64,000 bases of DNA from Candidatus Fervidifonticultor secundus. GTDB lineage: Bacteria > Sysuimicrobiota > Sysuimicrobiia > Sysuimicrobiales > Humicultoraceae. The position numbers were made by a program, and so were the translations under genes. Of the stretch, positions 37,278 through 60,356 are shown piece by piece. The notes beneath the pieces were generated by a model. That model had not been told where the DNA came from. It saw only the letters and a program-made list of their open reading frames with translations, and searched no databases. Each line of letters begins with the position of its first letter. Within the stretch, counting starts at the first letter, position 1. The DNA is taken from contig JAVKIP010000003.1 of NCBI GenBank assembly GCA_031459385.1, forward strand, positions 96,001 through 160,000, read 5' to 3'.

Positions 37278-39383
37278 TCAAAACCGGGGGTTATCGTACC
37301 AGCGGTCGATGATCTGATAGGCTGCTCGCAGGAACCGGGCATCCACGCCGCCCCCGGGGTCGAGGACGTACCCGACGCCCTGGTTGATGTGGATGTACTG
37401 GCCCAGCAGCGCCCCGGTGAACTCGCCCGCCTGGTTGATGCTGATGTTGGCCCTCGGGGCGAAAACCACTGCCGACACCCGGTTCTCCTGATCCCACCAG
37501 ATGGACGCGACGCCGGTCTCCTCGTACGACGGGTCGCTGGCGCAGCTCAGCACCTGGATGCGGTCCCCCGGCCAGACGAGCAGCGCGCCCGGCTTGGTGT
37601 CGTCCACGCCGAACCACGACCGCTGCCCCAGACGGAACGTCCTCCCCACGTGGAAGTACACTTTTCCTCTCCCGGAGATGGCCAGGACCGCGTCCCGCTC
37701 GAAGATGACGCTGGTGGCATGGATGTGCAGTTCGGCCGCGGGGTTGTCCGGCGTGCTGATCGTCATCCGCTGCCCGGCCCCCGGATGCACCTCATCGTAG
37801 CGGAGTTCCTTCACCAGGCCCTCGGCCTCGCTGTGCACGATGCGCAGCGGCGCATCGTTGTTCGGGTCTGGGCTCGGCGTGCACGGGGGCGGCACGAACG
37901 GCGCGCACAGGACCTCCCGCACGTGCTCCCGCACCACGCCGTCGACCTGCGCGGCACAGCCCTGCGAGCAGTTCACGTCGCGCCCTGCGAAGGCGTTGCC
38001 GAAGATCGCGCGCGGCTCGGCGTAGATGACCGCCGTATCGGCGACCTTGTCGATATACCCTCGCTCGACGACCGAGGGGTTGGGGTTCAGATCGTCGAGC
38101 TGGTCGTTCCTCGGCGCGATCTCCGCGACGAACCGCCACGGCGCATTCGGCGTGCCGTCTTCCCTGCGCCGGTAGATGCGCCGCTTGAGCACGGTGGCGC
38201 TCTCGGGAATGCCGGTGAGCTTCGTGTACTGGCCGTTCAGGTCCAGTGGACCGGCGGCGGGGCTCGCGGGGCTGCTCCCCACGGACTCGATCTCGGCGGT
38301 CGTGGAACCCGGGTAGCGGTACACGTACGTGACCTTGTACGTGTAGCGGCCAGTCAGTCCCGGGGGCCGGACCGGCGGGTCGGCGGGAGCGGCCGCCGGC
38401 GCGCTCGCCGGCGCGGGCGGGCTGGGCGCCGTGGGGATCTGATGGATGAGCTCGCCGTCGACCCGCGTGTCGAGGTAGGTCTGCGTGCTATTGTCCGGAA
38501 TCTCGCCCACGAAGAACCACGGCCCCGTCGCCGCCTGCCCCGCGCGGGTTCTGTAGACTCTCCGCTTGACGATCGCCGCGGCGCCCAGAGGGATATTCGT
38601 CAGGGACCCGCTCTGGTTCGACAGCGCGACCGCGCCCGTCGCCGGGCTGCCGGCAGACTCGGCGCCGGCTGCGGTCACAAAGGTGACCTTCCAGGAGTAG
38701 GTGCCGGTCAGCCCGCGCGGCGCCTCGTCAGGGTCGATGGCGGTGGGCGTAAACCCGGCAGCGCCGGGGGGCGCCGCGAGGTCGTCGTCCCTCGCCTGGA
38801 TGGTCCCCGGGTTGCGCCGTGGCCCCGCAACGGAGATGTCCCGATTGCTGGCCACATCGGCGGTGACAGACGTACCCTGGTCGAGCCGGACGCCCCGCCG
38901 GCCGCAGAACCCGCCGAACGCATCGCCGCCCGGCGGCGAGCGCCGCACCCATACCTCGATCCGACGCCGAGCGCGCCCGACGCTGCTGGTGGCGATGACG
39001 TGCCGCACCTCGTTGTCCTGACAGCCTGTGGCTCCGGGCGCGGCGCCGTCGGTGCACCGCACGGCGACCTGGAACACCCCTGGACCGAATGCGATGGGTG
39101 TTCCCGACCCCGTCCAGCACTCGTCGTTGGAATGGTTCGGGGCGCACACCCAGGGCGGAGTGGTCTGCACGGCCCGGTCGTAGAGCTGCGAAATCGCGTA
39201 GGCGACGCCGGCCTCCGCCACGTTCAGCGTCTGGATCGCGAGACGGTTGGCCACCGCGCCGTGCAGGTCGCTCATGACCACCGAGAACACGCCGATGCCC
39301 ATGAGCCCGACGAGGAGCGAGGTCACGAGCACGAGGGGAAGGGCGAAGCCTGGCTCCCTCCGCAGCCGGCGACACGTCACCAT
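37278..39383 (-). CDS. Cassette 1: PilX-N-type large pilin/adhesin with two inserted Ig-like repeats
   Basis: G|FALPL (no E5), AEAGVAYA, Cys-rich, C-terminal RWYD. Confidence 0.8.
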   Translation of the reverse strand: MVTCRRLRREPGFALPLVLVTSLLVGLMGIGVFSVVMSDLHGAVANRLAIQTLNVAEAGVAYAISQLYDRAVQTTPPWVCAPNHSNDECWTGSGTPIAFGPGVFQVAVRCTDGAAPGATGCQDNEVRHVIATSSVGRARRRIEVWVRRSPPGGDAFGGFCGRRGVRLDQGTSVTADVASNRDISVAGPRRNPGTIQARDDDLAAPPGAAGFTPTAIDPDEAPRGLTGTYSWKVTFVTAAGAESAGSPATGAVALSNQSGSLTNIPLGAAAIVKRRVYRTRAGQAATGPWFFVGEIPDNSTQTYLDTRVDGELIHQIPTAPSPPAPASAPAAAPADPPVRPPGLTGRYTYKVTYVYRYPGSTTAEIESVGSSPASPAAGPLDLNGQYTKLTGIPESATVLKRRIYRRREDGTPNAPWRFVAEIAPRNDQLDDLNPNPSVVERGYIDKVADTAVIYAEPRAIFGNAFAGRDVNCSQGCAAQVDGVVREHVREVLCAPFVPPPCTPSPDPNNDAPLRIVHSEAEGLVKELRYDEVHPGAGQRMTISTPDNPAAELHIHATSVIFERDAVLAISGRGKVYFHVGRTFRLGQRSWFGVDDTKPGALLVWPGDRIQVLSCASDPSYEETGVASIWWDQENRVSAVVFAPRANISINQAGEFTGALLGQYIHINQGVGYVLDPGGGVDARFLRAAYQIIDRWYDNPRF

Positions 39384-39400
39384 CGTGCGCACCTCGCCTT

Positions 39401-40039
39401 CTATGGCCCGCGTAGGCTGACGACCGTCTGGTACGTCTGCCGCTCGGGCGGCCGCCCTGCGGCCGATGCCGCCTCCACGGTCATCGTGATCCTCAGCGAG
39501 TGGACCTGCCGGCGATCGGCGGTCACGTTGCCGTCCCGATCGAGGTAGACGAACCCGCCCCCACTCTGCACGATGGGTGGGGTGAGGGCGATGCGGCTGG
39601 GATCCGGGGCGGTCCGGGTGGTGACCTCGTCGGTGCACGGCTCCACTTCCTCGGGGCGGGTCTCCTGATAGAGCGTCTGGTTCTCCACGTAGTACACGTA
39701 GCGCAGTCGATCGTCGGGAGGTGCGCCGGGTGGGGACCGGTCCTCGAGGATGGCGTGGAAGGCCAGCCGCTGGCCGAATCCGTTGCCGGTGCCGATGACC
39801 AGGAAGCCCTCGGGGCAGGGCCGGTCGGCGTCGTAGTTCACCTGGCGCACCCGGTCGGCCAGCCACGCCATGGCCTGCCGTGCGCGCTCCTGGTCCGAGA
39901 CCCGGGCGTGGACGATGAACCGCCCCCTGATGACGGCGCTGAGCAGCAGGTAGAGGCTGCTCACGACCAGCGCGGCGATGGCTAGGCTGGAGACCAGCTC
40001 GATCAGGGTCAGGCCCTCGGCGCGGCGCAGCAGCTTCAC
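39401..40039 (-). CDS. Cassette 1: PilW-like minor pilin
   Basis: G|LTLIE prepilin motif. Confidence 0.85.
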   Translation of the reverse strand: MKLLRRAEGLTLIELVSSLAIAALVVSSLYLLLSAVIRGRFIVHARVSDQERARQAMAWLADRVRQVNYDADRPCPEGFLVIGTGNGFGQRLAFHAILEDRSPPGAPPDDRLRYVYYVENQTLYQETRPEEVEPCTDEVTTRTAPDPSRIALTPPIVQSGGGFVYLDRDGNVTADRRQVHSLRITMTVEAASAAGRPPERQTYQTVVSLRGP

Positions 40040-40560
40040 GGCGGGCACCGTCCGGTGAAGATCTCCGCAACGTACGTCGTGGTGGAGGCGTCCGGCGGGT
40101 ACACATCCGGGTCTGGCCGCGGTCCGGGCCCCCAATCGGTCTTGTAGTAGTACACGGTGACGCGCTGCATCGCGGGCCCCGCCGGCTCGACCTCCACGTA
40201 CCCTGCGTCGGGAGCCGTCCCGGCCCGGCCCTCGACCACGGCCGGCAGCGCCGGTTCGCCCCGCAGCGTCGGATGCGGGACCTTCCAGCCCGGTTCGGGC
40301 AGCGGGGAGCACAGACGCCGCAGGAACTCGATCTCCCCCTGCATCCACAGGGTGGCTGCGCTGCGATCCTGGGACTGCTGGCGAGTGATGGTCAGGCTGC
40401 CGACGATCGCGCCCATCATGAGCGGTGTCGCCAGCCCCAGGATCAGCATCGTGACGAGCAACTCGACCAGCGTGAAGCCCCCGCGCCCAGACCAGGACGC
40501 GAGGGCCCTCGCCGTGGCTGCGGGTGCCCTATCCACAGTCGGACGGTCGCCGCGTGTCAT
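40036..40560 (-). CDS. Cassette 1: PilV-like minor pilin
   Basis: G|FTLVE, WMQGEIEFLR. Confidence 0.85.
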   Translation of the reverse strand: MTRGDRPTVDRAPAATARALASWSGRGGFTLVELLVTMLILGLATPLMMGAIVGSLTITRQQSQDRSAATLWMQGEIEFLRRLCSPLPEPGWKVPHPTLRGEPALPAVVEGRAGTAPDAGYVEVEPAGPAMQRVTVYYYKTDWGPGPRPDPDVYPPDASTTTYVAEIFTGRCPP

Positions 40561-41083
40561 CGGTGATCGCTCCGGTCTGCGCCGCCACGCAGATGTGGTA
40601 GGCCTTGCCTGTCAGGCTGCTGCGCACCCTGAGGGTCCCGCCGGCCTGCGGAATGCCCGTGGGGTCCCAGGCGAGCGCGGCCGGCAGGGACGACCATTCG
40701 ACATCGGCGGGGAAGCAGTAGCGCTTGATCACGGCCGCCGCCTGCGCAATCGTGTACGACGGTCGGTCGACGCATGCCGGATCGCTGGCCGCGAACGTCA
40801 CATCGACGTCGGCGCGGCGCGTCAGCGCTTCCTGCTGGGCGACGCGCAGATCGGACGCCAGGGTGCGCGCCACGGCCAGCGCGCGCTGGTTGCTCTGGTA
40901 GTTGCGGTACGAGGGCAGGCTGAGCCCGAGGACGACGCCCGCCAGCGCGAGGACGAGCACGGTCTCCAGATACGAGACACCACGCTGACCCCTGTAGGGA
41001 ACCGCCGCCCCGCCCATCGGCGCCGACGCCTGCGCTCGGCCCTCGCGCGCCGAGCGCCGCTCAGAATCACGAAGAGAGCGCAT
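40529..41083 (-). CDS. Cassette 1: FimT/GspH-like minor pilin
   Basis: G|VSYLE, LASDLRVAQQEA, C-terminal QTGAI. Confidence 0.85.
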   Translation of the reverse strand: MRSLRDSERRSAREGRAQASAPMGGAAVPYRGQRGVSYLETVLVLALAGVVLGLSLPSYRNYQSNQRALAVARTLASDLRVAQQEALTRRADVDVTFAASDPACVDRPSYTIAQAAAVIKRYCFPADVEWSSLPAALAWDPTGIPQAGGTLRVRSSLTGKAYHICVAAQTGAITDDTRRPSDCG

Positions 41084-41090
41084 CCGCGCG

Positions 41091-41182
41091 GCCCTCTTCG
41101 GTAGCCCGGCCGACCCGCCGACACAGCCGGGTCCCGCAGCTTTGCGCCCCCGGATCGCTCCGGGGTCAGCCCGTTCGGAGGT
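41091..41182 (-). ncRNA. c-di-GMP-I (GEMM-I) riboswitch upstream of cassette 1
   Basis: GGGC-TGA-CCCCGGA-GCGA-TCCGGGG-GCGCAAAG-P3-CTACCGAAGAGGG. Confidence 0.85.
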
Positions 41183-41290
41183 GTCGGCTCGAACCTTCCC
41201 TGCAAGCTCCCTGGACCTTCACCGGAGGTGCCCCACCGCCGGCGAAGGGTTGTGAGTGTTCTCCAGGCCGGCGAGAACTCCTCCTGACGA

Positions 41291-41350
41291 TCCCCTGGGC
41301 GATTTGCCCCGGGGTGAAGGTCCCCGGGGTGATGTTCCCCTGCGGGGCTC
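41291..41350. repeat. Three to four degenerate 15-bp tandem units (consensus TCCCCnGGGTGA)
   Basis: tcccctgggcgattt / gccccggggtgaagg / tccccggggtgatgt / tcccctgcggggctc. Confidence 0.55.
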
Positions 41351-41945
41351 AGTCCGGAACCTTCTCGGGCCCCCTGTTCCGGTAGGCGTTGATGAACGCC
41401 ACGATCCGGCCCTCGTCGTAGGCGTCGAGCGTCAACAGCCGCTCCCAGGCCGCCACGGCAATGGCGCGGTCGTTCTGCGGCCGCGGCGTCAGGATGACCT
41501 TGCTGCGATACCGCCCCACCAGCTCTTCCAGCTTCTCCACCAGCGCGGTGTCCTTCGGATCCCGGTAGGAGATCCAGATGCCGCCGTGTTCCAGGTTGTG
41601 AACGACGATCTCGTCGGGGATCGGCTCGCGATGGACGCCCCAGGGCGCCACCTGGTTCCCGGTGTGCCAGCCAGAGGTGGGCGGGTTGGAGTTGTATGGC
41701 GGGTGCGGTTGGCCCAGCGCGATGTGCTGTCGGCCCTGACCCGGGATGCGGTCGCCCGGGCCGGGGCGCAGCGCCGACCAGACGATGAGCGCCACCAGCA
41801 CGACCGCACCCGCCGCCACGCTGCCGTAGACCGTGACCTGCCGCCTGCGCCGGCGCGTCTGCTCCTGCCGCTGGGCCTGGCGCCGGGCCTCGCGGGCGGC
41901 TTCCCGACGCTGGTGCTTGGCTTCTCGCGCGGTGGACCCGGCCAT
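41349..41945 (-). CDS. DUF3105 family membrane-anchored protein
   Basis: YNSNPPTSGWH, VHNLEHGGI, AAW. Confidence 0.9.
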   Translation of the reverse strand: MAGSTAREAKHQRREAAREARRQAQRQEQTRRRRRQVTVYGSVAAGAVVLVALIVWSALRPGPGDRIPGQGRQHIALGQPHPPYNSNPPTSGWHTGNQVAPWGVHREPIPDEIVVHNLEHGGIWISYRDPKDTALVEKLEELVGRYRSKVILTPRPQNDRAIAVAAWERLLTLDAYDEGRIVAFINAYRNRGPEKVPD

Positions 41946-42183
41946 GAGGACGCTCCCTGAGCCTTCCCCCAGAGCCTGCAGGGGAGTTCTTCGATCGTGG
42001 TGTAATCTTCCCGCCGGCGCGCCTGGCGCACGGCGGTGGACCTGGCACGCTCCCTAGTCTAGCAGTTGCGTCAAGGGCCGGCACTGTCGCCTGGCGGCCT
42101 GGATCGCTTCGGCCACAGGCACTGAGGGACCGACTGGGATGCACCGCCGGTGGGCACTGTTGCTATGGAGCAGGAGTCGCGAC

Positions 42184-42275
42184 GTCCTCCGACAATGGCC
42201 ACCCCGGAGCGATCCGGGGGCGCAAAGTCCCAGGGCCCGCGCGATCCGCGGGCTGGCTGCACTGCCGAAGAGGGC
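42184..42275 (+). ncRNA. c-di-GMP-I (GEMM-I) riboswitch upstream of cassette 2
   Basis: CCTCCGACAATGGC-CA-CCCCGGA-GCGA-TCCGGGG-GCGCAAAG-P3-CTGCCGAAGAGGG. Confidence 0.85.
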
Positions 42276-42324
42276 GACGTGTGAGTCATGCCAGGGCACA
42301 CGCGCTGGCTCGGAGGCGAGGACC

Positions 42325-42867
42325 ATCACGTCCAGGGCGCGAGACGGATTCACCCTGCTGGAAACCCTGATCGTTGTGGCGGTGCTGGGCCTGCTCCTGG
42401 GCTTCTCTGTGCCCCTCTACCGCGGCTCCCTGGCCGACCGCGCCGTCTGGAACGCCGCCTTTCAGGTCCAGAACGACCTCCGGCTGGCGCAGCAGGTCGC
42501 CCTCGCCAGGGCAGGGCGCGGGCCGAGGGTGGAGCTGTGCTTCCTGAGCGCGAACCATGACGCCGGCTACGAGATCTACACGGTGGACTACACCGACCGG
42601 TTTGCGCGGACGGGCGCGGTGATCGGCCAGACGGTGAAGGTCGTCAGGGCCGGCGAGGCCTTCCGCACCGGCCTCGACGTGGACGTGGAGGCAGGGGCAA
42701 CGCAGGCCTGCCTGGCCGGTGGCGGCAGACCGGCACTGGTCTACCTGAGCACGGGCAGCCCGACGTTTGCCACCGAGCGGCGCATCACCCTTACCTATCA
42801 GGGCCGCTCGCGGTGCGTCACGATCACCCCCACGACGGGCCGCGCCACGGCGGGGCGGTGTCCGTGA
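42325..42867 (+). CDS. Cassette 2: FimT/GspH-like minor pilin (start codon uncertain)
   Basis: G|FTLLE, DLRLAQQ, TTGRA; no in-frame ATG/GTG/TTG between riboswitch and cleavage site; in-frame ATC at 42325 after GGAGG. Confidence 0.75.
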   Translation: MTSRARDGFTLLETLIVVAVLGLLLGFSVPLYRGSLADRAVWNAAFQVQNDLRLAQQVALARAGRGPRVELCFLSANHDAGYEIYTVDYTDRFARTGAVIGQTVKVVRAGEAFRTGLDVDVEAGATQACLAGGGRPALVYLSTGSPTFATERRITLTYQGRSRCVTITPTTGRATAGRCP

Positions 42868-43418
42868 GGGCGGTCCGTGGCAGCCGGACCGGCCCTCCCC
42901 GACTGCGCGCCGCCGGCTTTACCACCTTCGAGGTCCTGCTGGCCGCCGTGGTGGTGGCGCTCGTGGTGGCGTTCACGATCCGGGTGGTTGTCGCGACACT
43001 GGGGCTCGTGGGAAGTTCCGAGCGGGACCCGCAGCACGGCGCGCGCGCCCGGTCGCAGGCGACCGAGTGGATCCAGGCAGCGATCGAATACAGCCGGGCC
43101 GTCGGGTTCGACGCGCTGCGCAGGGCGCCGACGTGCGCTGCGCTGACCGCGCTGTCGCCATGTCACTTCTGGATTCCGCCGGCGGTCGACAGCGCGGATA
43201 GGCCGTTCGACCTGGGGCCGGCGCTGCCTTCTGGCTTCGACTGCGGCCATGTGCAACTGGCGCAGTGGAGCGCCAGCCCGCCGCCCGGCGGCGATCTCGA
43301 CAACCTGCTGTCGCTGACCGTGGAGGTCTACCGGTCCCGCACGTCCTGCGACGCCGGCGGGACCGGGCAGGCGTTCATGACCGCTCAGACCGCCATCGCC
43401 AGGCGGCAGGGACCGTAG
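42864..43418 (+). CDS. Cassette 2: PilV-like minor pilin
   Basis: G|FTTFE, WIQAAIEYSR. Confidence 0.82.
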   Translation: MRAVRGSRTGPPRLRAAGFTTFEVLLAAVVVALVVAFTIRVVVATLGLVGSSERDPQHGARARSQATEWIQAAIEYSRAVGFDALRRAPTCAALTALSPCHFWIPPAVDSADRPFDLGPALPSGFDCGHVQLAQWSASPPPGGDLDNLLSLTVEVYRSRTSCDAGGTGQAFMTAQTAIARRQGP

Positions 43419-43432
43419 ACGAGGAACCGGGC

Positions 43433-44023
43433 GTGGTCAGGGCGACCGGCCGGGTGCGCGAGCGGGGCATGACCCTGATGGATGTGGTGGTGGGCCTGGC
43501 GCTCATGACCGTCGCGGCCCTGGGGATCTTCGCCGGCTTCAAGGGCGCGCTCACCGGCTGGACCGTGGCCCAGCAGGTCACCGCGGAATCCCACAACGCG
43601 CGCTTCGTGCTCGAGTACGTGGCGCGGCTGCTCCGGATGGCCGGGAACGAGTACGCCGGCGGTCCGCCGCTGGCCGTGACGAACCCAGACGAGGTCGTCT
43701 TCCTGGGCAACGTGGACGACGACCCGCAGGTGGAGTGCTACAGCATCTACCGCGACGGGCAGGGCGTCGTCCGCATCTTCGCGATGGAGCTGGGGGGCGC
43801 GGACCCGCCGCCGGCGGCGTGCACCGGCGCCCGGGCCGCGGGAGCGGGCCAGCCGCTGACGACCCAGGTCGAGGCGCGGAACATCACCGTGGAAGACCTG
43901 CGGCTCTCGTACAGCCCGACGGTGCTGCCGCGACGGGTGACGCTCGAGATCCGCGTGCGCGGGGTCGGCTCACCCGGACCGTTGACGATGTCCACCCAGG
44001 TGTTCTTGCGCGCAGGACAGTAG
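43433..44023 (+). CDS. Cassette 2: PilW-like minor pilin
   Basis: G|MTLMD (Asp at +5), NARFVLE...LRMAG. Confidence 0.82.
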   Translation: MVRATGRVRERGMTLMDVVVGLALMTVAALGIFAGFKGALTGWTVAQQVTAESHNARFVLEYVARLLRMAGNEYAGGPPLAVTNPDEVVFLGNVDDDPQVECYSIYRDGQGVVRIFAMELGGADPPPAACTGARAAGAGQPLTTQVEARNITVEDLRLSYSPTVLPRRVTLEIRVRGVGSPGPLTMSTQVFLRAGQ

Positions 44024-44034
44024 GGGGCGAGCCC

Positions 44035-45831
44035 ATGGGACGCGAGGCGCACACCCACGGCGCGCACGGGCACGGCCCGCACGCACGCCGCGGGCGGGGC
44101 GAGCGGGGCACCGCGATGCTGATGGCCCTGGTGGTGGTCCTGATCCTGGCCCTGCTGACCATCGCCCTGGCCAACGTCGCCGTCACCGAGTACTCCACGG
44201 CCGCCGCGCTGGATCGCAGCCTAAAGGCCCTGATCGGCGCCGAAGGGGCGGGCGAGGCCCTCATCGCGTTCCTGCGCACCCAGGCAGACTGGACAAACCT
44301 GGCAACCACCGGTGGCTGGACGAACGGCAGCCTGCCCGCCGCCCTCCGGCAGGGCACGCTGCCGGGCAGCGACGTCAGCTATGAGATTCGCGTGCGCCAC
44401 CTGTCCGGCCCGGGTTACGATCCGGCGGTCAACATCCTGGTGCGGGTCGTGGGCGAGGCGCGCGGACAGAGCCGGGCCGTCGAGTTCCTGCTGCACAGGG
44501 TGGGCCCGGCAGACTTCATCTTCTATTCGGTAGACAACGTGGACATCTGCTCGATCGCGGGCGGCGGCAGCCTGCAGTTCCACGGCTCGGCCTACTTCCA
44601 GGCCGATCTGTGTCTCAAGGGGGGCGCCGAGTCGGGCTTCTACAACGACCGCCCGGTGTCCACGGCGCACCGCGACGCCAACGGGAACCAGCTCTTCCTC
44701 AACCATCTGTACGTGCAGGGCAACCTGGACGGCACCGGCAACCCCTCCATCGGGACCGCCTCGCAGCACTACTTCTTCCTGCACGTGGCCGGGACGCTTA
44801 CCAACAGCAACAAGTTCTTCTATGACAACTTCGACCGGAACGTGAAAGACCCGTTCTATCCCGCCGTGGTGCAGATCGTCGCGCAGGCCGCCAGCAACCC
44901 GGCCAATGCGGGGCGACAGCAGGGCACACAGATGGAGCTGGCCATCTGCGAGTACAACCCGGCCGGCAACACGTGGGCGAAGGTCTACACCCCGAACCTG
45001 AGCCTGCAGGCCGGCAAGGTCTTCTACCTGCCGCGCCCTACGGTCGAGACCGGCTACTGGCTCGCGGACACGAGCCCCTGCCCGAACTCCGGGACACTCC
45101 CCGACGCGGTCCGCGCCTCGTCGCTCTACGCCCTCTACTGGGACGGACGGTCGAGCCCGGCCAGCGGGACCAGCAACCTGGTGATCCCGGTGTCCGACCG
45201 GCCGATCTACGTGCCGGGGAAAGTGCTGCACGGGCAGAACGTCCGGTTCGAGGGCAAAGGGCAGATCGTGGCAGCCAACCAGCCCGGAGCCGGCGTCAGG
45301 CTCGCCGACGGCACGCGGGTGGCGGTAGCCGCGCAGAGCACGTGTGCCTGGAACCTGGACGACCCCACCGCTGCCAACGCCACCGGCAACGACTGCGGGG
45401 ACAGCAACAATGCGGGCTACTGGGTCAGAGCGAAGGTCTCGCCATGCCGCCAGCCCCCGGGGCCGGGGCCGTTCGCCAACGACAACCCCGCCTCGACGTT
45501 CGTCCGGCGCTATGGCGCCAACGCCGCCGGCGATGTGGTCGTGTTCGTCGTCAACGGGAGTGCCGGGTCGCGGCTGAACGCCAACGCCTGCGACCAGGAG
45601 ATGAACCTGATGGCCGTCGTCGGCGACGCGGCCTCGAGCGCAGGCTTCCGGATGGCCTACAAGCTGCAGTGGTACGGCGTGTTGATGACCAGGCAGATGC
45701 GCCTGGGACAGGTGCCCGACTTCTGGCAGATGCCGGATACGTTCGGCGAGCTCCCCGGCTGGATGAAGAACATCCTGCTCGGGCAGAACTCCGGGGTGGT
45801 CCGCGTGGAGCGCTGGCGGGAGCTCTTCTAA
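44035..45831 (+). CDS. Cassette 2: PilX-N-type large pilin/adhesin
   Basis: G|TAMLM, AEGAGE, Cys/Asn-rich, C-terminal RWRELF. Confidence 0.8.
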   Translation: MGREAHTHGAHGHGPHARRGRGERGTAMLMALVVVLILALLTIALANVAVTEYSTAAALDRSLKALIGAEGAGEALIAFLRTQADWTNLATTGGWTNGSLPAALRQGTLPGSDVSYEIRVRHLSGPGYDPAVNILVRVVGEARGQSRAVEFLLHRVGPADFIFYSVDNVDICSIAGGGSLQFHGSAYFQADLCLKGGAESGFYNDRPVSTAHRDANGNQLFLNHLYVQGNLDGTGNPSIGTASQHYFFLHVAGTLTNSNKFFYDNFDRNVKDPFYPAVVQIVAQAASNPANAGRQQGTQMELAICEYNPAGNTWAKVYTPNLSLQAGKVFYLPRPTVETGYWLADTSPCPNSGTLPDAVRASSLYALYWDGRSSPASGTSNLVIPVSDRPIYVPGKVLHGQNVRFEGKGQIVAANQPGAGVRLADGTRVAVAAQSTCAWNLDDPTAANATGNDCGDSNNAGYWVRAKVSPCRQPPGPGPFANDNPASTFVRRYGANAAGDVVVFVVNGSAGSRLNANACDQEMNLMAVVGDAASSAGFRMAYKLQWYGVLMTRQMRLGQVPDFWQMPDTFGELPGWMKNILLGQNSGVVRVERWRELF

Positions 45832-45976
45832 CCTTATCACTCGCAGGTAGCAGACGCCCGGGCGCCCGGCCGTGCCCTCCCGTCGTCGCCCCTCCCGCCC
45901 GGCTGGGCGGGTCTAGGACCGCGGTCTCCGGGGCATGACCCTCCCGGGGGGACTCCGGTCAGAGGAGTGGGATCGC

Positions 45977-46474
45977 GTGCGGTGCCTTTGGCAGGCGGCC
46001 TGGCGTGGCCACACAGCTCCGACGGCCGCCGGCGTCACAGTCCTGGAGCTCGGGGTCGCGCTGGGCCTGGGGGCGTTGCTCCTGGCCCTAGCGATGCCAC
46101 TGTACTTCGGCTTCGTGCGCGAGCGCCGGGTGGCCCGCGTGGCCGAGGACCTGGCCGGCCTGCTGCGCTTCGCACAGCAGCGGGCGGTGGCCCAGTCGGT
46201 CGACAGCTGCGGCGTGCAGGTCGTCACCCTGAGCTCCCGCGCCGAGGTCCGGCGGATCCCGCGGGAGGCGGACGGCGACTGCGCCGACCCGGTGACGATC
46301 CGGGTCGGCGAGCCGTACCCGCAGGGTGTCGCCGTGGCCGAGGTCACCGTCGAGTTCTCCAGTGCGGGATCCCTGGCCACGGGCAGCGCGACCTCGATCG
46401 GCATCGCCTCGGGGGGTCGCACGCGCACGGTGTCGGTGCAGGCCGCCACGGGAAGGGTGGAGATCACGCCATGA
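45977..46474 (+). CDS. Cassette 3: FimT/GspH-like minor pilin
   Basis: GAGGAG before GTG; G|VTVLE, LRFAQQRA, ATGRV. Confidence 0.82.
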   Translation: MRCLWQAAWRGHTAPTAAGVTVLELGVALGLGALLLALAMPLYFGFVRERRVARVAEDLAGLLRFAQQRAVAQSVDSCGVQVVTLSSRAEVRRIPREADGDCADPVTIRVGEPYPQGVAVAEVTVEFSSAGSLATGSATSIGIASGGRTRTVSVQAATGRVEITP

Positions 46475-47001
46475 CGCCGCGCAAGCCGGATGGCGGGTTC
46501 ACGCTGATCGAGGTGGTCATCGCCATGCTGCTGCTTGGCATCGTGGCGCTGGGGAGCAGCGGCGTGGTCCGGTCGCTGGGCCTGCTGGGGCGCTCGCAGA
46601 TCTCCAGCGACCGCCACGAGCGGCCCGCGCGGCTGCGCACGCTGGCCATGGAGTACATCCAGGCCGAACTGGAGTACCTGCAGAACCGCTCGTACTACGC
46701 CCTGCGCGACGCCTCGGCGTGCAACCCGCCCGGGGCGCCCACGCCGATCGCCGCGGCGCGCCGCGTCCCGAGCAGCTACCTGGACGCCAGCGAGCCTCGC
46801 CTGCCGGCCTCGTTCGCAGCGGCGGACATCATCATCACGACGGATCCGACCATCACCGCGCCGGCGTCCCCGCCCCTGGACTGCCGGCCCAGGGTCATGA
46901 GCGTCACCGTCTACCTGGCGCCCGGCGACCTGCCGGCTGTGCCCGGCGGCGCAGGCGGCACCCCCTTCATCCGCGGCGCCACGGCCCGGTCGTGGCGATA
47001 G
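46471..47001 (+). CDS. Cassette 3: PilV-like minor pilin
   Basis: G|FTLIE, YIQAELEYL. Confidence 0.85.
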   Translation: MTPRKPDGGFTLIEVVIAMLLLGIVALGSSGVVRSLGLLGRSQISSDRHERPARLRTLAMEYIQAELEYLQNRSYYALRDASACNPPGAPTPIAAARRVPSSYLDASEPRLPASFAAADIIITTDPTITAPASPPLDCRPRVMSVTVYLAPGDLPAVPGGAGGTPFIRGATARSWR

Positions 47002-47030
47002 CCACCGGACGCCGCCGGGAGGACGGAACG

Positions 47031-47666
47031 ATGCCACGGCACGCGACGCGGACGGCTGACCGGCGGGGCGAGCGGGCATTCACCGTGCTGGAAGTGCTGG
47101 TGGCGCTCAGCCTCTTCGGGGTGGTCCTGCTCACGGGCTTTGCGGCGTTCAACGCCAGCTACCGCGGTCTGGTGGCGGGCAAGGAGCTGGCCGACGAGCA
47201 CCAGAACGCGCGGCTGGTCCTGGAGTGGATCACCCGCCGGATTCGCCTTGCCGGCATCGGCGCGCCCCCCGGCACCACGGCCTTCTTCAGCGAAGCCGGT
47301 ACCAGCGCCCTGGCGTTCGTCGCCGATACCGACGCCGACGGGGTACTCGAGTGGCGCCGGTACTGCCTGGATGCCGCCGCAGGCGCGGTCCGCGAGCAGG
47401 TGCTCGAACCCGCACCCACCCCGCTGCCGTCCCCCGGCGACGCCTGCGCCGGCGCGACCATCACCTCCCAGGGGCTGCATGCGCTGCGCGTCTCCCTGCT
47501 GCAGTTCTCGTACTTCAACGGGCAGGAGGCGGCAACCAGCGCCCTGTCCCAGATCCGCCGGGTCCGGATCGTGCTGGGCCTGGACTCGAACCGCTCGGGC
47601 GCCTACGACGCCGCCCAGGACGTCACCTTCACGATGGACGCCGTGCTGCGGAACCCGCTCCAGTAG
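47031..47666 (+). CDS. Cassette 3: PilW-like minor pilin
   Basis: A|FTVLE, QNARLVLE...IRLAG, C-terminal LRN. Confidence 0.85.
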   Translation: MPRHATRTADRRGERAFTVLEVLVALSLFGVVLLTGFAAFNASYRGLVAGKELADEHQNARLVLEWITRRIRLAGIGAPPGTTAFFSEAGTSALAFVADTDADGVLEWRRYCLDAAAGAVREQVLEPAPTPLPSPGDACAGATITSQGLHALRVSLLQFSYFNGQEAATSALSQIRRVRIVLGLDSNRSGAYDAAQDVTFTMDAVLRNPLQ

Positions 47667-47701
47667 CGGGGACGCCGTCTGCCGCCGGAGGGCATGTGAC
47701 C

Positions 47702-49573
47702 ATGGACAGCGCGCGACCCACAACGTCGGTCAGGCGATCGCCCGGCGAGGCCGGGCTGGCGCTGGCCCTCGTGCTCTTGACCATCAACGTCATCCTGATC
47801 GTCACCGCGACCCTGGTGGCCATCGCGCTGAACGAGTACCAGGCCGCGGCTAGCGGCGAGCGGTCGCGCCAGGCATTTCAGCTGGCCGAGGCCGGGCTGG
47901 AGAAGGCGATCTACGAGCTAAAGCGCGACCTGGACTGGACCGACTCCGGCGCATCCGCAGCCGCCACCAGGAACCTCAACGACCCGCGGGAGTGGGCACC
48001 GCTGTGGGACGGGAGCGCGAACCTCGTCGACACGCCGTTCCCGGCGGGGGCGACGATCGGCGAGATCACCGTCGAGCTGTGCCGCGACGACAACTTCGGC
48101 GACGGCAACGGCTGCCCGGGCGTGCCCGCGCCGACCGTGGCCGGGTGCACCCCGAATGCCTGCATCTGGGTGCGGGCCACCGGGCGCATCCCCGGGCTGG
48201 CCGCGCGGCAGATCGAGTTCCTCCTGAGCCAGATGGCGCCGGGGTACGACCTGATCAACTACTCGGCGAGCCCCATCAACATCGGCGCCGGCGGCGGCGG
48301 CAACGGCAGTTTCATCCTCCACGGCTCGCTCTACATCGCCTCGTGCCTCGACCCCGACGGGGGCGGTCCCCAGCCGTGCGTGGGTCTCGTCATGCAGGGT
48401 GACGGCGCCATCCTCAACGACGTGCCGTATCCCACGCCGGGCGACCCGGACACCACCCCACCCTACAACAACAAGGTCTATGTGGTCGGTCAGATCCAGG
48501 GCCAGGGCAACTCGTGGCAGATCGGCCTGGACAGCCAGCCCATGCAGGGCGTCTATGCCACCCTGGGCTGGTCCAGCGGCTACGAGAACCAGATCGACGC
48601 GCTCGACAAGGGGACCGTGGTGCCATTTGTACCCTTCCCCGACCCCTCGAAGCTCTGTGAGCCGGGGGCCCCCGGCGATCCACCGCGGTGCCTAATGAAC
48701 CGGCTCAACCTGCCACCGGCCGACGGCGGCATCACGCCCATCAACGCCGACCTGGCGTACGTCTGCACGGCCGCCACCTGCACCACTGCGGCCTCGTGGA
48801 CGCCGGTGTACATCCGGGGGCCCCTGGCCGACCCCCTCACGCCGCTGCGGCTCTCGGCGAACAACCCGACGCGCACCCGGGTCGTGATTCCCGACCGCAA
48901 CCCCGACGGCTCGCCGGCGGTGAACTGCACGACGACGCCGTCGACGTGCAATGTCGCCGCCGGGACCGGCAGCGTGAACGGGTCGGGGAACTTCTCCCTG
49001 GTCTACAACGGCTACGCGGGCGCCGGCCAGGTGAACCTGTGGACGCAGTCCGGGGCCGATGCCTTCATCCACACCACCAAGCACGTTCGGATCGACGGCG
49101 ACGTGCGCTACGCCGGCCGCACGACGTTCCTGATCGAGAACGCCGACGACGTGGGCGCGGCGATGCCGGCACTGGAGATCCGCGGGTCGGTCACGCCGCT
49201 GTGCCGGGCCAGCCAGACCACCTGCGCCCAGACGTTCGGTCAGGCCAACGGGGACACCTACGCGTTCGCGGTCGGCCCCAAGTGCACGGGCGCGCCGCCC
49301 AGCGGTTCGCTGGTCTGCACGCCGACCGGGGGCGGCGTCTACGTCCGGGGGTCGGGGATCGAGCTGAACCTGGTGGTGCTGGCCCACGGGACGCTCAAGA
49401 ACGACAACCCGCAGACCTGGTACGGCATGTTCATCGCGGGCCTGCTGGACTGGGACAACAACCCGTCCATCTATCCCGTGGCCAACCTGAAGGCGAACCT
49501 CCCGCCCGGCATCGCTCCGCTGGCCAAGCCGGGGTTCGGGCTGCAGATCACGCGATGGCGCGAGGTCTTTTAG
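47702..49573 (+). CDS. Cassette 3: PilX-N-type large pilin/adhesin
   Basis: G|LALAL, AFQLAEAGLEKA, Cys-rich, C-terminal RWREVF. Confidence 0.82.
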   Translation: MDSARPTTSVRRSPGEAGLALALVLLTINVILIVTATLVAIALNEYQAAASGERSRQAFQLAEAGLEKAIYELKRDLDWTDSGASAAATRNLNDPREWAPLWDGSANLVDTPFPAGATIGEITVELCRDDNFGDGNGCPGVPAPTVAGCTPNACIWVRATGRIPGLAARQIEFLLSQMAPGYDLINYSASPINIGAGGGGNGSFILHGSLYIASCLDPDGGGPQPCVGLVMQGDGAILNDVPYPTPGDPDTTPPYNNKVYVVGQIQGQGNSWQIGLDSQPMQGVYATLGWSSGYENQIDALDKGTVVPFVPFPDPSKLCEPGAPGDPPRCLMNRLNLPPADGGITPINADLAYVCTAATCTTAASWTPVYIRGPLADPLTPLRLSANNPTRTRVVIPDRNPDGSPAVNCTTTPSTCNVAAGTGSVNGSGNFSLVYNGYAGAGQVNLWTQSGADAFIHTTKHVRIDGDVRYAGRTTFLIENADDVGAAMPALEIRGSVTPLCRASQTTCAQTFGQANGDTYAFAVGPKCTGAPPSGSLVCTPTGGGVYVRGSGIELNLVVLAHGTLKNDNPQTWYGMFIAGLLDWDNNPSIYPVANLKANLPPGIAPLAKPGFGLQITRWREVF

Positions 49574-49613
49574 GGGTCTAGGGCGGCCCGGAAACGGGCA
49601 AAGAGTTCCAGGG

Positions 49614-49707
49614 CTCCTCCGACAAAGGCTACCCCGGAGCGATCCGGCGGGCGCAAAGCTCCAGAACCCGGGTTCTCCCAGGTTGGCTGAGCTACCGAAG
49701 AGGGGAG
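49614..49707 (+). ncRNA. c-di-GMP-I (GEMM-I) riboswitch upstream of cassette 4
   Basis: CTCCTCCGACAAAGGC-TA-CCCCGGA-GCGA-TCCGGCGG-GCGCAAAG-P3-CTACCGAAGAGGGGAG. Confidence 0.87.
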
Positions 49708-49711
49708 AGTT

Positions 49712-50236
49712 GTGGGAACTGCCTTCTGCAGAGCCACGCGCACGGGCTCGAGCCCGTCCGCTCCGCACCGCACGCGCCGAATCCCACACGGTGCTCGTCA
49801 GGCGCCCTCTGGGCGCTGGCAGGCCGGGTACACGGTCCTGGAGCTGCTCATCGTCTCGGCGATCGGCCTGCTGGTGCTGTCGTTCGGGGTCGGCAGCATC
49901 AGCCGGGCCATGGCCCGCGAGGAGCTGGATGGCTGGGCCCGGGCCATCGCCGTCGAACTCACGGCCGCCCAGCAGGCGGCCATGACGCGCCGGACCAGCG
50001 TCACGGTGTCGTTCCAGAACAACGCCTTCATCGTGGTGGCCAGCGGCGGCGGCACGCTGCGCGCGCAGGACCTGCCGTCCCACATCAGCTTCGGCGCCAC
50101 GCTGCAGACGGTGACGTTCGACCGGCGGGGGGTGCCAGGCGGCGCGTCCTCCGTATCGCTGACGAGCACGCGCGCCGGGAAGACCTACACCATCACGATC
50201 CAGCCCAACACGGGACGGGTGACCGCAGATGGCTGA
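49712..50236 (+). CDS. Cassette 4: FimT/GspH-like minor pilin
   Basis: G|YTVLE, ELTAAQQAA, FDRRG, NTGRV. Confidence 0.85.
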   Translation: MGTAFCRATRTGSSPSAPHRTRRIPHGARQAPSGRWQAGYTVLELLIVSAIGLLVLSFGVGSISRAMAREELDGWARAIAVELTAAQQAAMTRRTSVTVSFQNNAFIVVASGGGTLRAQDLPSHISFGATLQTVTFDRRGVPGGASSVSLTSTRAGKTYTITIQPNTGRVTADG

Positions 50237-50666
50237 CCGCCCGCGCGCCCGCCGCGCCAGCGGCGGGTTCACCCTGATCGAGGTCGTCGTCGCCATGGCC
50301 GTGCTCTCCCTGGTGGCCACCACCGCGCTGGGCGGGCTGCTGTTCACCATGACCCAGACCCGGCGCGGCTTCGACCGGGCCCAGGCCGCGGCATGGGTCC
50401 AGGCCGAGCTGGACTTCCTGCGCACCATGGGGTACGGGCTGGCGCCGGGGACGCGCACTGTGCCCACTGACGGCTATCTGGCCAACAGCGACCTGCAGGA
50501 ACCGCGGATTCCCGACGGGTTCGACCGGGCCGAGATCGTCGTCGAGGACCTCACCGGCAGCCTGGGCATTCCCCTGAAGTCCATGACGGTGCGCCTGTAC
50601 CAGACGCCGACCTCCCCGCCCTACACGATCCTCGTCACGTATGTGGCGAACTTCGACTACCCGTGA
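50229..50666 (+). CDS. Cassette 4: PilV-like minor pilin
   Basis: G|FTLIE, WVQAELDFLR. Confidence 0.87.
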   Translation: MADRPRARRASGGFTLIEVVVAMAVLSLVATTALGGLLFTMTQTRRGFDRAQAAAWVQAELDFLRTMGYGLAPGTRTVPTDGYLANSDLQEPRIPDGFDRAEIVVEDLTGSLGIPLKSMTVRLYQTPTSPPYTILVTYVANFDYP

Positions 50667-51376
50667 GCGGACCAGCGATGCGCCGGCCTGGGGCAGCACG
50701 GCACGGACAGGCGGGGATCTCCCTCGTCGAGGTCATGGTGGCCATGGTCATCATGACGGTCGTCATCGGGACGATCGCGACGCTGGTGGGCGCGTCGGTC
50801 CGCAGCAAGATGATCGTGGCCAGCCGGTCCTCCGACACGGAGACGGCACGCCAGACGCTGGAGATGATGTCCGAGCGGCTGCGCAACGCGGGGCTGAACA
50901 TCGACCCTGCGGCCCAGCCCGACCGCTGCGACGACATGGTCGTGGCCAAGGACCCGGCCCTGCGGCCGACGGCGACCCAGCTCTACGTGGCCGGCGAGAT
51001 CTTCAACTCGAACACGACCGCGGGCGACCAGGTGATCGTGCTGGGCTACCGGCTCACCGGCGGCCGGATCGTCGAGGACCGCAGCGCGTGCGGCGTATGG
51101 GCTCCGACGACCAGCGATGTCTCGAACCCCGGGATCACGGTGACGAGCCTGCTCTTCCGGTACTTCGGCTCAAGCGGCGGCGAGATCACCGTACCCACAA
51201 CCGACGAGGAGGCGATCCGGAGCATCCGCGTGGTGCAGATCAGCCTCACGGTCCGGGCCGAGGAGGGACGGTCGGGCGCCCAGATCCAGCGCTTCAGCCG
51301 GCAGGTGATGCTGCGCAACCCCCGGCCGGACCGCAGTGGCTGGCTGCCGCCGGCCGGATGGGAGACGAATCCATGA
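50663..51376 (+). CDS. Cassette 4: PilW-like minor pilin
   Basis: G|ISLVE, ARQTLE...LRNAG, MLRN. Confidence 0.85.
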   Translation: MSGPAMRRPGAARHGQAGISLVEVMVAMVIMTVVIGTIATLVGASVRSKMIVASRSSDTETARQTLEMMSERLRNAGLNIDPAAQPDRCDDMVVAKDPALRPTATQLYVAGEIFNSNTTAGDQVIVLGYRLTGGRIVEDRSACGVWAPTTSDVSNPGITVTSLLFRYFGSSGGEITVPTTDEEAIRSIRVVQISLTVRAEEGRSGAQIQRFSRQVMLRNPRPDRSGWLPPAGWETNP

Positions 51377-52782
51377 AAAGAGGCACGATGCGGCCCGCCG
51401 GCGCCGGGCGCCTGCGCCGCACGCCGGCGGGCGGCCAGGCTGGCGCGGCGCTGCTCTCGGTGGTGCTCTTCCTGCTGCTGATCCTGATGGTCACGGTGGG
51501 TGTCATGGCGGTGGTCCGCAGCGACCTGGCGGCCGGCATCCGCCAGCAGCAGGCCGTGCAGGTCTTCAACGTGGCGGAGGCGGGCGTGCACTACGCCATC
51601 GCGCGCCTGCAGACCTCTGGGGCGAACCGGTACGACGGGGCCACGGTCCCCATCACCGACGGCAGCACCACCATCGGGACCGCCACCATCCAGGTCCGCT
51701 GCCTGGACGGCACCCTCCCGAGCGCCAGCGCCTGCAACGGTGCCGAGCCGGCCTACCGGCGGATCGCCTCCACCGGAACGCTCACGGTGGCAGGACCCCG
51801 TCGGGTGGTGACGGCGGTGGTCGAGGGCACGACCTCAGTGACACGGACCTACGCGGTGTGCGCCTACGACGCCCTGACCCTCGACCAGCAGGTGACGGTC
51901 TACGGGTCGGTGGGCACCAACGGCATTATGACGCTCAGCGGGCCCAACAACCTCAACCGTGCGGCGATCTGCGACTCCACCCCGGGCGGGCTGGGCGGCC
52001 GGTGCGGCACGCCCAATCCCGCACCCGCCAGCTCGTTCACGGCCGGCGCCTCCGCCGTGGGGACCATCACGTGCAACGGGGGCGGCTGTGCCAACCAGGT
52101 GGAAGGGCCGACGACACCCAACCAGCCGGCCGGGTCGGTATGCCCGACGGTCACGCTCCCGGGCTGGGGGCCCCCGGGCACCACGCCCCTGTCGGTGCCC
52201 CTCGGCAGCACGGTGTTCGCCAACCCCGCCACCAACTACGGCTCCGTGACGCTGGCGGATACGCCCGGCAACCCCAACCCCTGCCCGTCGGACCCCGCGC
52301 AGCGCGCCACGCTGGTGCTGGACGCGGGCAGCGACCCCACCGCGACGGTCACGTTCCAGATGGCCACGCTGTCGGTCGGCAAGTGCGCCCGCGTCGAGAT
52401 CCGCGGGCAGGGGAAGGTCGAACTGCGGTTGCTCGCGCCGACCACCACGGCGCTGCGCACCGTCCAGCGCTCGGTCCTGGGGACCACCTCGCAGACCGTC
52501 GGCAGCGAGGTGGCCGTGGAGGGCCACCGGTTCACGGTCAAGGTGGTGTCCACCCACTCGACCGCCGCCGTCGACTTCAACCAGTCGGGCTTGATCGCCG
52601 GCACGTTCATCGTGCCCAACGGCGGGTTCCACCTGGACCAGGCACAGATCACCAACGGCGCGATCCTGGCGAGGGCCGTCGACTTCGACCAGGGCACCAC
52701 CTTCACGTGGGACCCGCGGTCGATCATCGGCGACCAGGTCTACGGCGACTTTCGCCGGCTGCGAGCCTGGAAGGACCAGTAG
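51373..52782 (+). CDS. Cassette 4: PilX-N-type large pilin/adhesin
   Basis: G|AALLS, VAEAGVHYA, Cys/Thr-rich, C-terminal AWKD. Confidence 0.82.
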   Translation: MKRGTMRPAGAGRLRRTPAGGQAGAALLSVVLFLLLILMVTVGVMAVVRSDLAAGIRQQQAVQVFNVAEAGVHYAIARLQTSGANRYDGATVPITDGSTTIGTATIQVRCLDGTLPSASACNGAEPAYRRIASTGTLTVAGPRRVVTAVVEGTTSVTRTYAVCAYDALTLDQQVTVYGSVGTNGIMTLSGPNNLNRAAICDSTPGGLGGRCGTPNPAPASSFTAGASAVGTITCNGGGCANQVEGPTTPNQPAGSVCPTVTLPGWGPPGTTPLSVPLGSTVFANPATNYGSVTLADTPGNPNPCPSDPAQRATLVLDAGSDPTATVTFQMATLSVGKCARVEIRGQGKVELRLLAPTTTALRTVQRSVLGTTSQTVGSEVAVEGHRFTVKVVSTHSTAAVDFNQSGLIAGTFIVPNGGFHLDQAQITNGAILARAVDFDQGTTFTWDPRSIIGDQVYGDFRRLRAWKDQ

Positions 52783-52830
52783 GCGCCCGAGAGGGGCCCG
52801 GCGCACACGCCGGGTGACGCCGCGCCCGCG

Positions 52831-59811: not shown

Positions 59812-60356
59812 GGCGTGACACACAACGACTCCTCGACCGCGCCTGGCGGACGTTCCTGGGAGCGCGCATGGTGGCTCGCCGGGGCAACGGGGATCTCGTC
59901 GCGGTGCTGGCATACCGGGCAATGGAAACCGTCGCCCGGGCGCTGTTGGTCCAGCAGCAGATCTACTGCGGGGCCTCAGACGACGTGCGCGAGCAGTTCA
60001 CGCGCCGGCTGGTCGGCGAAGATGCGCGCACCCGGCGATGGCTCCAGTGGATGCTGGACGCGCGCGACATGTGCGCGCAGGCAGAGGTCGAGGGGGATGC
60101 GCCCATCAGCGACGATGCAGCCCGCAGGCTGATCGAACGGGCAGGGACCATGGTGCGCGAGGCCCGCGACGCCCTCTGGCTCGATGCGGCGCGACGTCGC
60201 GGCAGTCTGCTCCTCGATCCGCGCCCGGCTACAGGAGGGGATCCTCCTCTCGAACCTCGACCCGCGCCAGGTCCACCCCTGCTGCCTCCAGCAACGACCG
60301 TGCCAGGGGATCGGGGTAGTCGCCAGCAAACACGACGCGCCGGATCCCGGCGTTGA
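59808..60356 (+). CDS. HEPN-like domain protein (degenerate)
   Basis: LDRA...A...G....AYRAME..ARALL helical HEPN pattern; GTGA overlap with the upstream gene. Confidence 0.55.
   Translation: MRRDTQRLLDRAWRTFLGARMVARRGNGDLVAVLAYRAMETVARALLVQQQIYCGASDDVREQFTRRLVGEDARTRRWLQWMLDARDMCAQAEVEGDAPISDDAARRLIERAGTMVREARDALWLDAARRRGSLLLDPRPATGGDPPLEPRPAPGPPLLPPATTVPGDRGSRQQTRRAGSRR

Follow-up and report, generated by a model that had tools for sequence, protein, structure and literature searches.

Systems in which one type IV pilus machine serves more than one set of minor pilins are already described: the Com and EPS core minor-pilin complexes of Synechocystis are reported as two such complexes on one machine (PMC13759059), and cyanobacterial PilX and Thermus ComZ are both reported to carry a beta-solenoid at the position where we model one here (PMC6561018, PMC13759059). 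In Synechocystis, an autoregulated group-3 SigF is described as reading the pilA1 promoter, TAGGC ... GGTAA (PMC2532724). The question of how a cell with several tip complexes picks one for the shared pilus machine is raised by a window of 64,000 nucleotides from Candidatus Fervidifonticultor secundus (assembly GCA_031459385.1, contig JAVKIP010000003.1, positions 96,001 to 160,000). In this window, 16 prepilin open reading frames (ORFs) make up four cassettes, A to D, each with a FimT/GspH-like, a PilV-like, a PilW-like and a giant PilX-like gene. Our best explanation, to which we give a probability of about 0.6, is that these are four co-inherited four-gene sets, each of which would build an alternative tip, capped by a PilX with a predicted beta-solenoid, for the type IVa pilus (T4aP) machine, and each of which would be under its own combination of predicted SigF-like promoter and c-di-GMP-type riboswitch. 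The cassettes and genes are as follows, in positions of the window.

41083-37278, minus strand: cassette A, four genes
40529..41083, minus: A1, FimT/GspH-like minor pilin (Pfam GspH; start at ATG 41083 or the next ATG, 66 nt on)
40036..40560, minus: A2, PilV-like (profile matches, paralogy, signal peptide)
39401..40048, minus: A3, PilW-like (profile matches, paralogy, signal peptide)
37278..39383, minus: A4, giant PilX-like, 701 aa (DUF7305-like solenoid part and two tandem inserted modules of ~115 aa)
41349..41945, minus: DUF3105 membrane protein gene, outside the cassettes (family match)
42325-45831, plus strand: cassette B, four genes
42325..42867, plus: B1, FimT-like, likely ATC start (GspH match)
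42864..43418, plus: B2, PilV-like (paralogy, signal peptide)
43433..44023, plus: B3, PilW-like (paralogy, signal peptide)
44035..45831, plus: B4, giant PilX-like, 598 aa (paralogy, PilX_N clusters)
45977-49573, plus strand: cassette C, four genes
45977..46474, plus: C1, FimT-like (GspH match)
46471..47001, plus: C2, PilV-like (profile matches)
47031..47666, plus: C3, PilW-like (profile matches, paralogy)
47702..49573, plus: C4, giant PilX, 623 aa, modelled as a ComZ-like pilin with beta-solenoid (structure model and fold search)
49712-52782, plus strand: cassette D, four genes
49712..50236, plus: D1, FimT-like (GspH match)
50229..50666, plus: D2, PilV-like (profile matches)
50663..51376, plus: D3, PilW-like (profile matches)
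51373..52782, plus: D4, giant PilX-like, 469 aa, DUF7305-type (family match and structural neighbours)

An earlier sequence-only reading of this DNA had described the same gene order once on the minus and three times on the plus strand, with class III signal peptides throughout, and our results bear out both claims: all 16 ORFs stand in that order, and each has G or A followed by a hydrophobic run (mean hydropathy 1.96-2.88 over the first 21 mature residues). E5 is found in 11 of the 12 small pilins (B3 has D5) and is lacking in all four large ones. The first gene of each of the four cassettes matches Pfam GspH above the cut-off, and the best paralog of each gene is the gene at the same position in another cassette. 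The Verru_Chthon four-gene cassette models (TIGR02596/98/99/2600) reached a best score of 33.7 against a cut-off of 70, the rest scoring far lower.

The large proteins have the lengths previously given (about 470-700 aa), and since cysteine makes up 1.3-2.6% of their residues, as opposed to 0.72% in the proteome, they are Cys-rich only to a moderate degree. The terminal W-x-D/E motif also described is present as RWYD, RWRE, RWRE and AWKD at the ends of A4, B4, C4 and D4; in 94 of the 102 giant PilX-like proteins collected, a W-x-D/E/Q motif lies within the last 16 residues, which would suit a role as closing pilin strand. The bodies are divergent, as had been said, but not unrelated: B4 and C4 are 27% identical over 304 aa, and A4 and D4 have in common a DUF7305-like C-terminal part, which scores below the cut-off, as it does in 30 of 31 A4 homologs. 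The A and C profiles can be aligned only across their N-terminal ~150 columns, and the giant PilX proteins collected from relatives fall into nine clusters and one singleton.

The C4 model, built from a 30-sequence alignment (pLDDT 78.9, pTM 0.72), has a helix at 16-75, three strands within 121-178, a long insert, and a last strand at 613-622 that carries the terminal Trp motif. In a fold search covering 48,161 chains its best match was Thermus ComZ (6QVI; Z 23.5, 411 residues aligned, rmsd 12.5 over two domains), followed by ice-binding solenoids (Z 12-13) and GspK (Z 9.8). As modelled, C4 is a pilin with a beta-solenoid inserted between the penultimate and the last strand, and from this fold we infer an adhesin role for the giant PilX. 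When the C4 alignment was searched against PDB sequences, only chance matches came back. B4 resembles C4 and PilX_N clusters, and the structural-atlas neighbours of B4 and D4 are PilX_N/DUF7305 proteins (TM about 0.5-0.6); as a single query against the genome contigs, B4 gave no match. The inserted module of A4 (window 38240-38720) matches a phage virion protein (PDB 8JOV) at E 9e-5; it is doubled in A4 and in 4 of 30 aligned homologs, and single in the rest. This tandem module, of variable copy number, also weakly matches baseplate and flagellar-hook proteins.

The machine that the cassettes would share lies elsewhere in the genome, as the sequence-only reading had supposed. Contig C10 carries pilB, pilT, pilC, the major pilin, two more pilT and a core minor set (PilV, PilX, FimT) ahead of pilMNO, pilD and a PilQ-like secretin; PilT, PilM, a secretin and a prepilin peptidase, the marks of a T4aP machine, are all in the genome. 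PilC (PilC/GspF), PilM and PilD have a single match each; PilM and three PilT score above their cut-offs, as does an MshE-type cyclic di-GMP (c-di-GMP) motif in PilB, while the PilQ model scores below its own. Of the two secretins, the first belongs to the pil locus and the second to a Tad-like locus, and no dedicated set of platform, ATPase and secretin of a type II secretion system (T2SS) was found in the genome, which is 97.6% complete. PilY1 (PF05567) has no match in the genome, and the control genomes gave no match either. Because a second PilB-like ATPase exists (both PilB-like ATPases carry MshEN-like repeats), "one machine" is true of platform and secretin but not strictly of the motor.

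Another reading takes the sets for pseudopilin tips of T2SS type (GspHIJK), or for primers of short endopili or of secretion pistons, in which the second PilB-like ATPase might take part; to this reading the GspH Pfam matches, weak GspI/J/K profile matches among the cassette pilins, the PilB score above the GspE cut-off and the second ATPase itself lend some colour. We consider it improbable: there is one PilC/GspF and one PilM match, three PilT motors but no third secretin, and the best fold for C4 is ComZ, not GspK; both secretins are assigned to the pil and Tad-like loci. Alternative tips that share one machine and have their cap as part of PilX had been proposed from sequence, and the single PilC, PilM, PilQ and PilD and the ComZ-like C4 speak for them, although as a concept they are already in print.

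Comparison with relatives points to the cassette as the unit. PilX profile matches occur in 40 of 41 genomes; 116 new PilX regions were built from the 150 matches listed (65 further ones being unlisted), of which 99 and one own-genome region were taken, plus 16 earlier ones. Among 34 cassettes, the nearest relative in another genome was of the same PilX type for FimT in 33, for PilV in 34 and for PilW in 34, with about 6.6 expected by chance. Judged from these comparisons, the cassettes are inherited and exchanged as units and the sets do not mix, and from this we infer that tips are assembled by cassette sets. Cassette number and order, which the sequence-only reading had singled out for comparison, do differ between relatives at one site: congener G002 has aptamer-C', C and aptamer-D between the same hydrolase and pyrophosphatase genes, and congener G001 likely B and then aptamer-D, divided between two contigs, while other genera have single cassettes or different pairs. 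For the promoter-plus-aptamer region of B, the nearest counterpart is the one at G002 C', but by a margin of only one point (45 vs 44), so the idea that the head stays while the cassette is swapped is a suggestion at most. The genes of the window, judged by eye with no family scan, include no conspicuous recombinase or transposase, which agrees with the earlier remark that the window has no recombinase. The DUF3105 gene that sits between A and B (41349-41945) was not seen beside those of the relatives' A or B cassettes that were inspected.

Control elements at the cassettes are listed next.

41097..41181, minus: c-di-GMP-I aptamer, cassette A (RF01051, 43.0 bits)
41071..41099, minus: terminator-like stem using the 3' P1 strand of the A aptamer (weak tail, 4 U of 9)
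42132..42156, plus: predicted SigB/F-type promoter, cassette B (motif)
42187..42269, plus: c-di-GMP-I aptamer, cassette B (RF01051, 47.3 bits)
45911..45935, plus: predicted SigB/F-type promoter, cassette C (motif; no aptamer)
49576..49600, plus: predicted SigB/F-type promoter, cassette D (motif)
49617..49699, plus: c-di-GMP-I aptamer, cassette D (RF01051, 43.1 bits)
52807..52841, plus: intrinsic terminator-like site at the end of B-C-D (terminator search)

GEMM-I aptamers had been recognised from the sequence ahead of the first, second and fourth cassettes, and the RF01051 search finds them there, ahead of A, B and D, at 43-47 bits (gathering threshold 35 bits); they are the sole Rfam matches in the window, and cassette C has no aptamer. 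The genome contains eight RF01051 aptamers, and the 41 genomes 267 matches (~6.5 per genome). Read from the Rfam alignments, positions G20, A47 and C92, which we take to be the ligand pocket in Vc2 numbering, are intact in the window aptamers; the GCGA loop is present, the receptor positions in P3 are gapped, and the AAA bulge is replaced by CAC, UAC or UGAC. Other aptamers of the lineage likewise do not have the consensus tetraloop receptor.

G versus A at position 20 of GEMM-I aptamers discriminates c-di-GMP from 3',3'-cyclic GMP-AMP (cGAMP), and the Hypr GGDEF proteins that make cGAMP have Ser or Thr where c-di-GMP cyclases have Asp; the Geobacter aptamers resemble those of the window in their GCGA loop and in the absence of the 11-nt receptor. 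This resemblance favours the view that the window aptamers sense cGAMP, as in Geobacter, with tip choice otherwise unchanged, and small P2 changes are reported to shift selectivity (PMC9262584). Yet position 20 is G in all three window aptamers, four of the seven GGDEF matches have a GHxxG motif, all with Asp (GHxxGD; GGEEF cyclases), and PilB has its MshE-type c-di-GMP motif; of the GEMM-Ib marks, A20 and a Hypr GGDEF in the genome, neither was found, and we hold this alternative to be very improbable. The retained G20, together with Asp at the specificity position of the cyclases, makes c-di-GMP the likely ligand.

Aptamer linkage was surveyed with a model from 13 of these aptamers plus Rfam scans on 56 of 115 loci, and was counted for FimT-led cassettes with >=300 bases of upstream DNA, which excluded cassettes in which no FimT was recognised and a single one whose upstream DNA was too short. 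An aptamer stands directly before 15 of 35 such cassettes (12 of 31 excluding this genome): 3/4 of type A, 4/7 of type B, 3/5 of type C, 3/11 of type D and 2/8 of the others, where one B-type case was scored at 421 bases through a mis-called first gene and is actually direct. Four further D cassettes lie behind an aptamer-sigma-roadblock arrangement. No aptamer was found before the core-type (0/26) or the orphan-type PilX loci (0/24).

Upstream of the aptamers we found a promoter-like motif, G[TA]CT[AG]-N15-GGG[CT]A, which precedes B, C and D in the window but not A, and which lies upstream of six of the eight aptamers in the genome. Genome-wide, a spacer of 15 gives 28 intergenic matches, whereas each spacer of 10-14 or 16-20 gives 4-11. 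The motif stands on the sense strand before the major pilin (pilA), a second pilin, pilT, the operon leading to pilB, the gene preceding pilQ, a GGDEF gene and a SigB/F-type sigma gene. With a motif matrix trained on sites outside the window, scores >=10 were obtained for 21 of 40 cassettes, a set that includes the four of the window; among controls with a shifted spacer 7 of 240 scored as high, and among random genes 12 of 487. A sigma-70 promoter scan gave 0 sites. A bipartite promoter with a fixed spacer that also precedes the sigma gene itself is the mark of a SigB/F/G regulon. The SigB/F-type sigma gene is present in 37 of 41 genomes; 27 of 30 of its loci have an aptamer, 13 of 29 have the motif, and the sigma scores 177 against the TIGR02980 cut-off of 234. 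Two sigma paralogs of this genome have no motif, which is found only before the aptamer-linked sigma gene. Since the autoregulated SigF of Synechocystis reads the pilA1 promoter, the aptamer-linked sigma is the likely reader, and a SigB/F-type sigma factor likely transcribes from the motif. At C10:15435-16869 (L142:7435-8866), a c-di-GMP-I aptamer, the SigB/F-type sigma gene and a roadblock gene lie beside the pilB locus, the aptamer probably being an OFF switch. The predicted control is two-layered, sigma promoter plus aptamer, and was incompletely covered by the sequence-only reading; cassette C has a predicted promoter of its own.

RNA folding with and without a bound-aptamer constraint predicts that the aptamers act in different directions. 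The terminator-like stem of A has a probability of 0.95 without the constraint and 0.00 with it, and this aptamer is predicted to be a terminator-based ON switch; the test took in 12 pilin-linked aptamers, that of A plus 11 belonging to other genera, of which nine were analysable, the bound fold disfavouring the terminator in six and favouring it in 0. The 5' P1 strand of the B aptamer (42186-42192) is complementary over 7 bases to the Shine-Dalgarno (SD) region at 42310-42316 before ATC 42325, and SD opening rises from 0.00-0.51 to 0.64-0.81 with the bound fold, which predicts a translational (anti-SD) ON switch, though the outcome shifts with the settings. The D aptamer holds the SD for GTG 49712 inside its 3' P1 strand; SD opening falls from 0.35-0.48 to 0.03-0.05 with the bound fold, and a translational OFF switch is predicted, a result that is in part built into the constraint. 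A common mechanism in which each of the three aptamers just hides an SD was rejected: the GAAGAGG strand also occurs in non-pilin aptamers, and the A aptamer covers it in either state. Of the 27 sigma-gene aptamers given, 25 were parsed, and 20 of these have a terminator-like hairpin, clear of P1 in 19; the layout, which resembles the Cd1 OFF design, would probably silence the gene when ligand is high. Were the sigma shut off in this way, the promoters of the major pilin and pilB would fall as well, and tip A would need other promoters, the motif-less C25 pilin or the second ATPase.

On these predictions A would be governed by an aptamer ON switch, B by sigma plus aptamer ON, C by sigma only and D by sigma plus aptamer OFF. 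The sigma gene itself would probably be shut down at high ligand, and as c-di-GMP rises, output would move away from D and C, by way of B, to A, with no DNA rearrangement involved. A bolder version, possible but doubtful, sees an RNA-level decoder that would turn one second-messenger concentration into an ordered choice of four tips, with a terminator ON switch for A, an ON switch for B gated by a ligand-silenced sigma (intermediate levels only), an OFF switch for D and sigma alone for C, the promoter-aptamer heads serving as fixed sockets for swapped cassettes.

The same tip complexes might, however, be switched together, or the aptamers be partly decayed, so that co-expressed tips would widen the substrate range with no choice among them. 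B, C and D share orientation with no convincing terminator between the cassettes, the aptamer scores are low, B1 requires an ATC start and many orthologous cassettes have no aptamer, all of which fits such co-expression; but each plus-strand cassette has its own motif, the D aptamer, SD and in-frame start are kept in all three congeners, and the aptamer pocket positions are intact. We regard co-expression as rather unlikely and prefer separately controlled alternative tips.

Several points weigh against separate control and against the tips themselves. The predicted wiring appears labile, because an immediately adjoining aptamer is missing from 20 of 35 cassettes and the motif from 19 of 40; related genomes are, moreover, not independent in the aptamer, motif and inheritance counts. 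The window aptamers score 43-47 bits, against 58-68 for four others in the genome, and with these low scores, the altered AAA bulge and no consensus tetraloop receptor, some may be weak or decaying. The polarity of B varies with transcript length and temperature (SD-blocking pairing 0.21-0.94), and the SD of D is no more than 0.35-0.48 open without ligand. There are three SigB/F-type sigmas in the genome; the nascent antiterminator of the sigma gene exceeds 0.5 in just 10 of 20 cases (0.97 in this genome), and its terminator forms in both states at equilibrium. As to the machine, PilB scores under the PilB cut-off but over that of GspE, and the second PilB-like ATPase is 54% identical. Among the four giant PilX, the solenoid fold was modelled and fold-searched for C4 only.

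Two start codons deserve comment. Between the aptamer and the cleavage site of B1 there is no in-frame ATG, GTG or TTG, and ATC 42325 is therefore the only start candidate. A frameshift or assembly error, suggested by an out-of-frame GTG at 42281, was rejected, none of the differences or indels listed being at that place: metagenome contigs X1 and X2 cover the region with 0 and 1 differences and X3 with at least 4, listed elsewhere, while the listed pieces of X4 do not reach the B1 start. The segment 36494-53280 is a single contig with 0 and 1 differences in two of four metagenome runs (one study, possibly the source), and the listed sequencing runs with matching DNA are hot-spring metagenomes, four of them from that one study. 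For C1, ATG 45935 overlaps the promoter-like motif, which makes GTG 45977 the likelier start.

Other loci were recorded along the way. At C10:16888-19068 (L142) and C9:60792-62780 lie the second PilB-like ATPase, with an N-terminal extension and MshEN-like repeats, and a response regulator joined to a GspE-like domain that is MshEN-like and has no Walker A. The first genes of the pilB operon, downstream of the promoter motif, are DnaB-helicase-like and a MerR-type regulator (C10:19367-21500; L142:11367-13500). The core minor set has no PilW in genus g1 (L036:2981-6059, L146, L147), where PilW-like orphans lie on C11 and C17; other genera retain a PilW or have the core set duplicated. Two orphan PilX-like genes of ~430-460 aa (L144 and C56:13600-14919) belong to a type with 24 members in relatives, an aptamer in none. 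Among aptamers of relatives, a c-di-GMP-II-GCG variant precedes an uncharacterised gene upstream of an orphan PilX (L029:11821-11906, G007), tandem c-di-GMP-I aptamers lie ahead of a PilV-PilW pair (L051:3964-4280, G019), and those at L055, L057, L065, L089, L059, L093, L118 and L030 bear the Rfam label c-di-GMP-I-GGC, the inspected ones reading GCAAAG like ordinary class I. Elsewhere in the window, a small AbrB-like plus nucleotidyltransferase-like gene (59287-59811) is followed by a HEPN-like ORF (59715-60356), which, with labels given by inspection, we presume to be possibly a toxin-antitoxin pair.

A literature search returned no account of per-cassette riboswitch control of minor-pilin sets, most subscription journals and supplements lying outside it, and, with most subscription journals again outside it, none of a pilus sigma controlled by a riboswitch, nor any of pili in the present lineage; the words "pili", "pilus", "riboswitch" and "c-di-GMP" do not occur in the main text of the phylum paper (PMC11604079). 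The lineage offers at least nine giant-PilX sequence types with matched partners for the study of how cognate tips assemble and which ligands the solenoids prefer, as well as a pilus sigma regulon with predicted riboswitch control. Because control would lie in short cis-acting RNAs and a definable promoter, each cassette's input-output curve could be measured with reporters without culturing.

Solenoid-capped alternative tips on a shared machine (cyanobacteria), riboswitch-led pilus operons (Geobacter, C. difficile) and each control ingredient are already known. In C. difficile a riboswitch likewise acts on pilin genes, but it is a c-di-GMP-II aptamer heading a whole operon, with no alternative tips in the part of the account drawn on (PMC11477304). 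The GEMM-I ON switch of pilM in Geobacter metallireducens is closer, aptamer and terminator being mutually exclusive via the 3' P1 strand, as we predict for A and five relatives' cassettes; it differs in sensing cGAMP and in heading one assembly operon rather than alternative tip sets (PMC9262584). Myxococcus xanthus has several minor-pilin/PilY1 tip sets on one machine, differentially transcribed, but with a separate PilY1 adhesin and two-component HsfBA control, a riboswitch being unmentioned in the abstract (PMC9109919). Thermus thermophilus ComZ with PilA1-3 (PDB 6QVI) shares the fold topology of C4 and the combination of three small pilins with one large solenoid pilin, but is described as one locus, for competence, and is 18% identical to C4 (PMC6561018). 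With regard to the promoter, the SigF-pilA1 pair of Synechocystis differs in its motif, which here reads G[TA]CT[AG]-N15-GGG[CT]A, and here the sigma gene lies behind a c-di-GMP-I aptamer (PMC2532724). The cyanobacterial Com and EPS complexes are similar in their FimT-PilV-PilW-PilX sets, the beta-solenoid before the last pilin strand, the general absence of PilY1, one shared machine and different regulation of the sets by second messengers, but they are described as two conserved sets under CRP-family regulators (PMC13759059), whereas here four tandem sets and a core set are found, exchanged between congeners and equipped with aptamer and promoter heads of their own. What appears to be new is the predicted per-cassette wiring by riboswitch and sigma factor, including a sigma motif that the first reading had missed.

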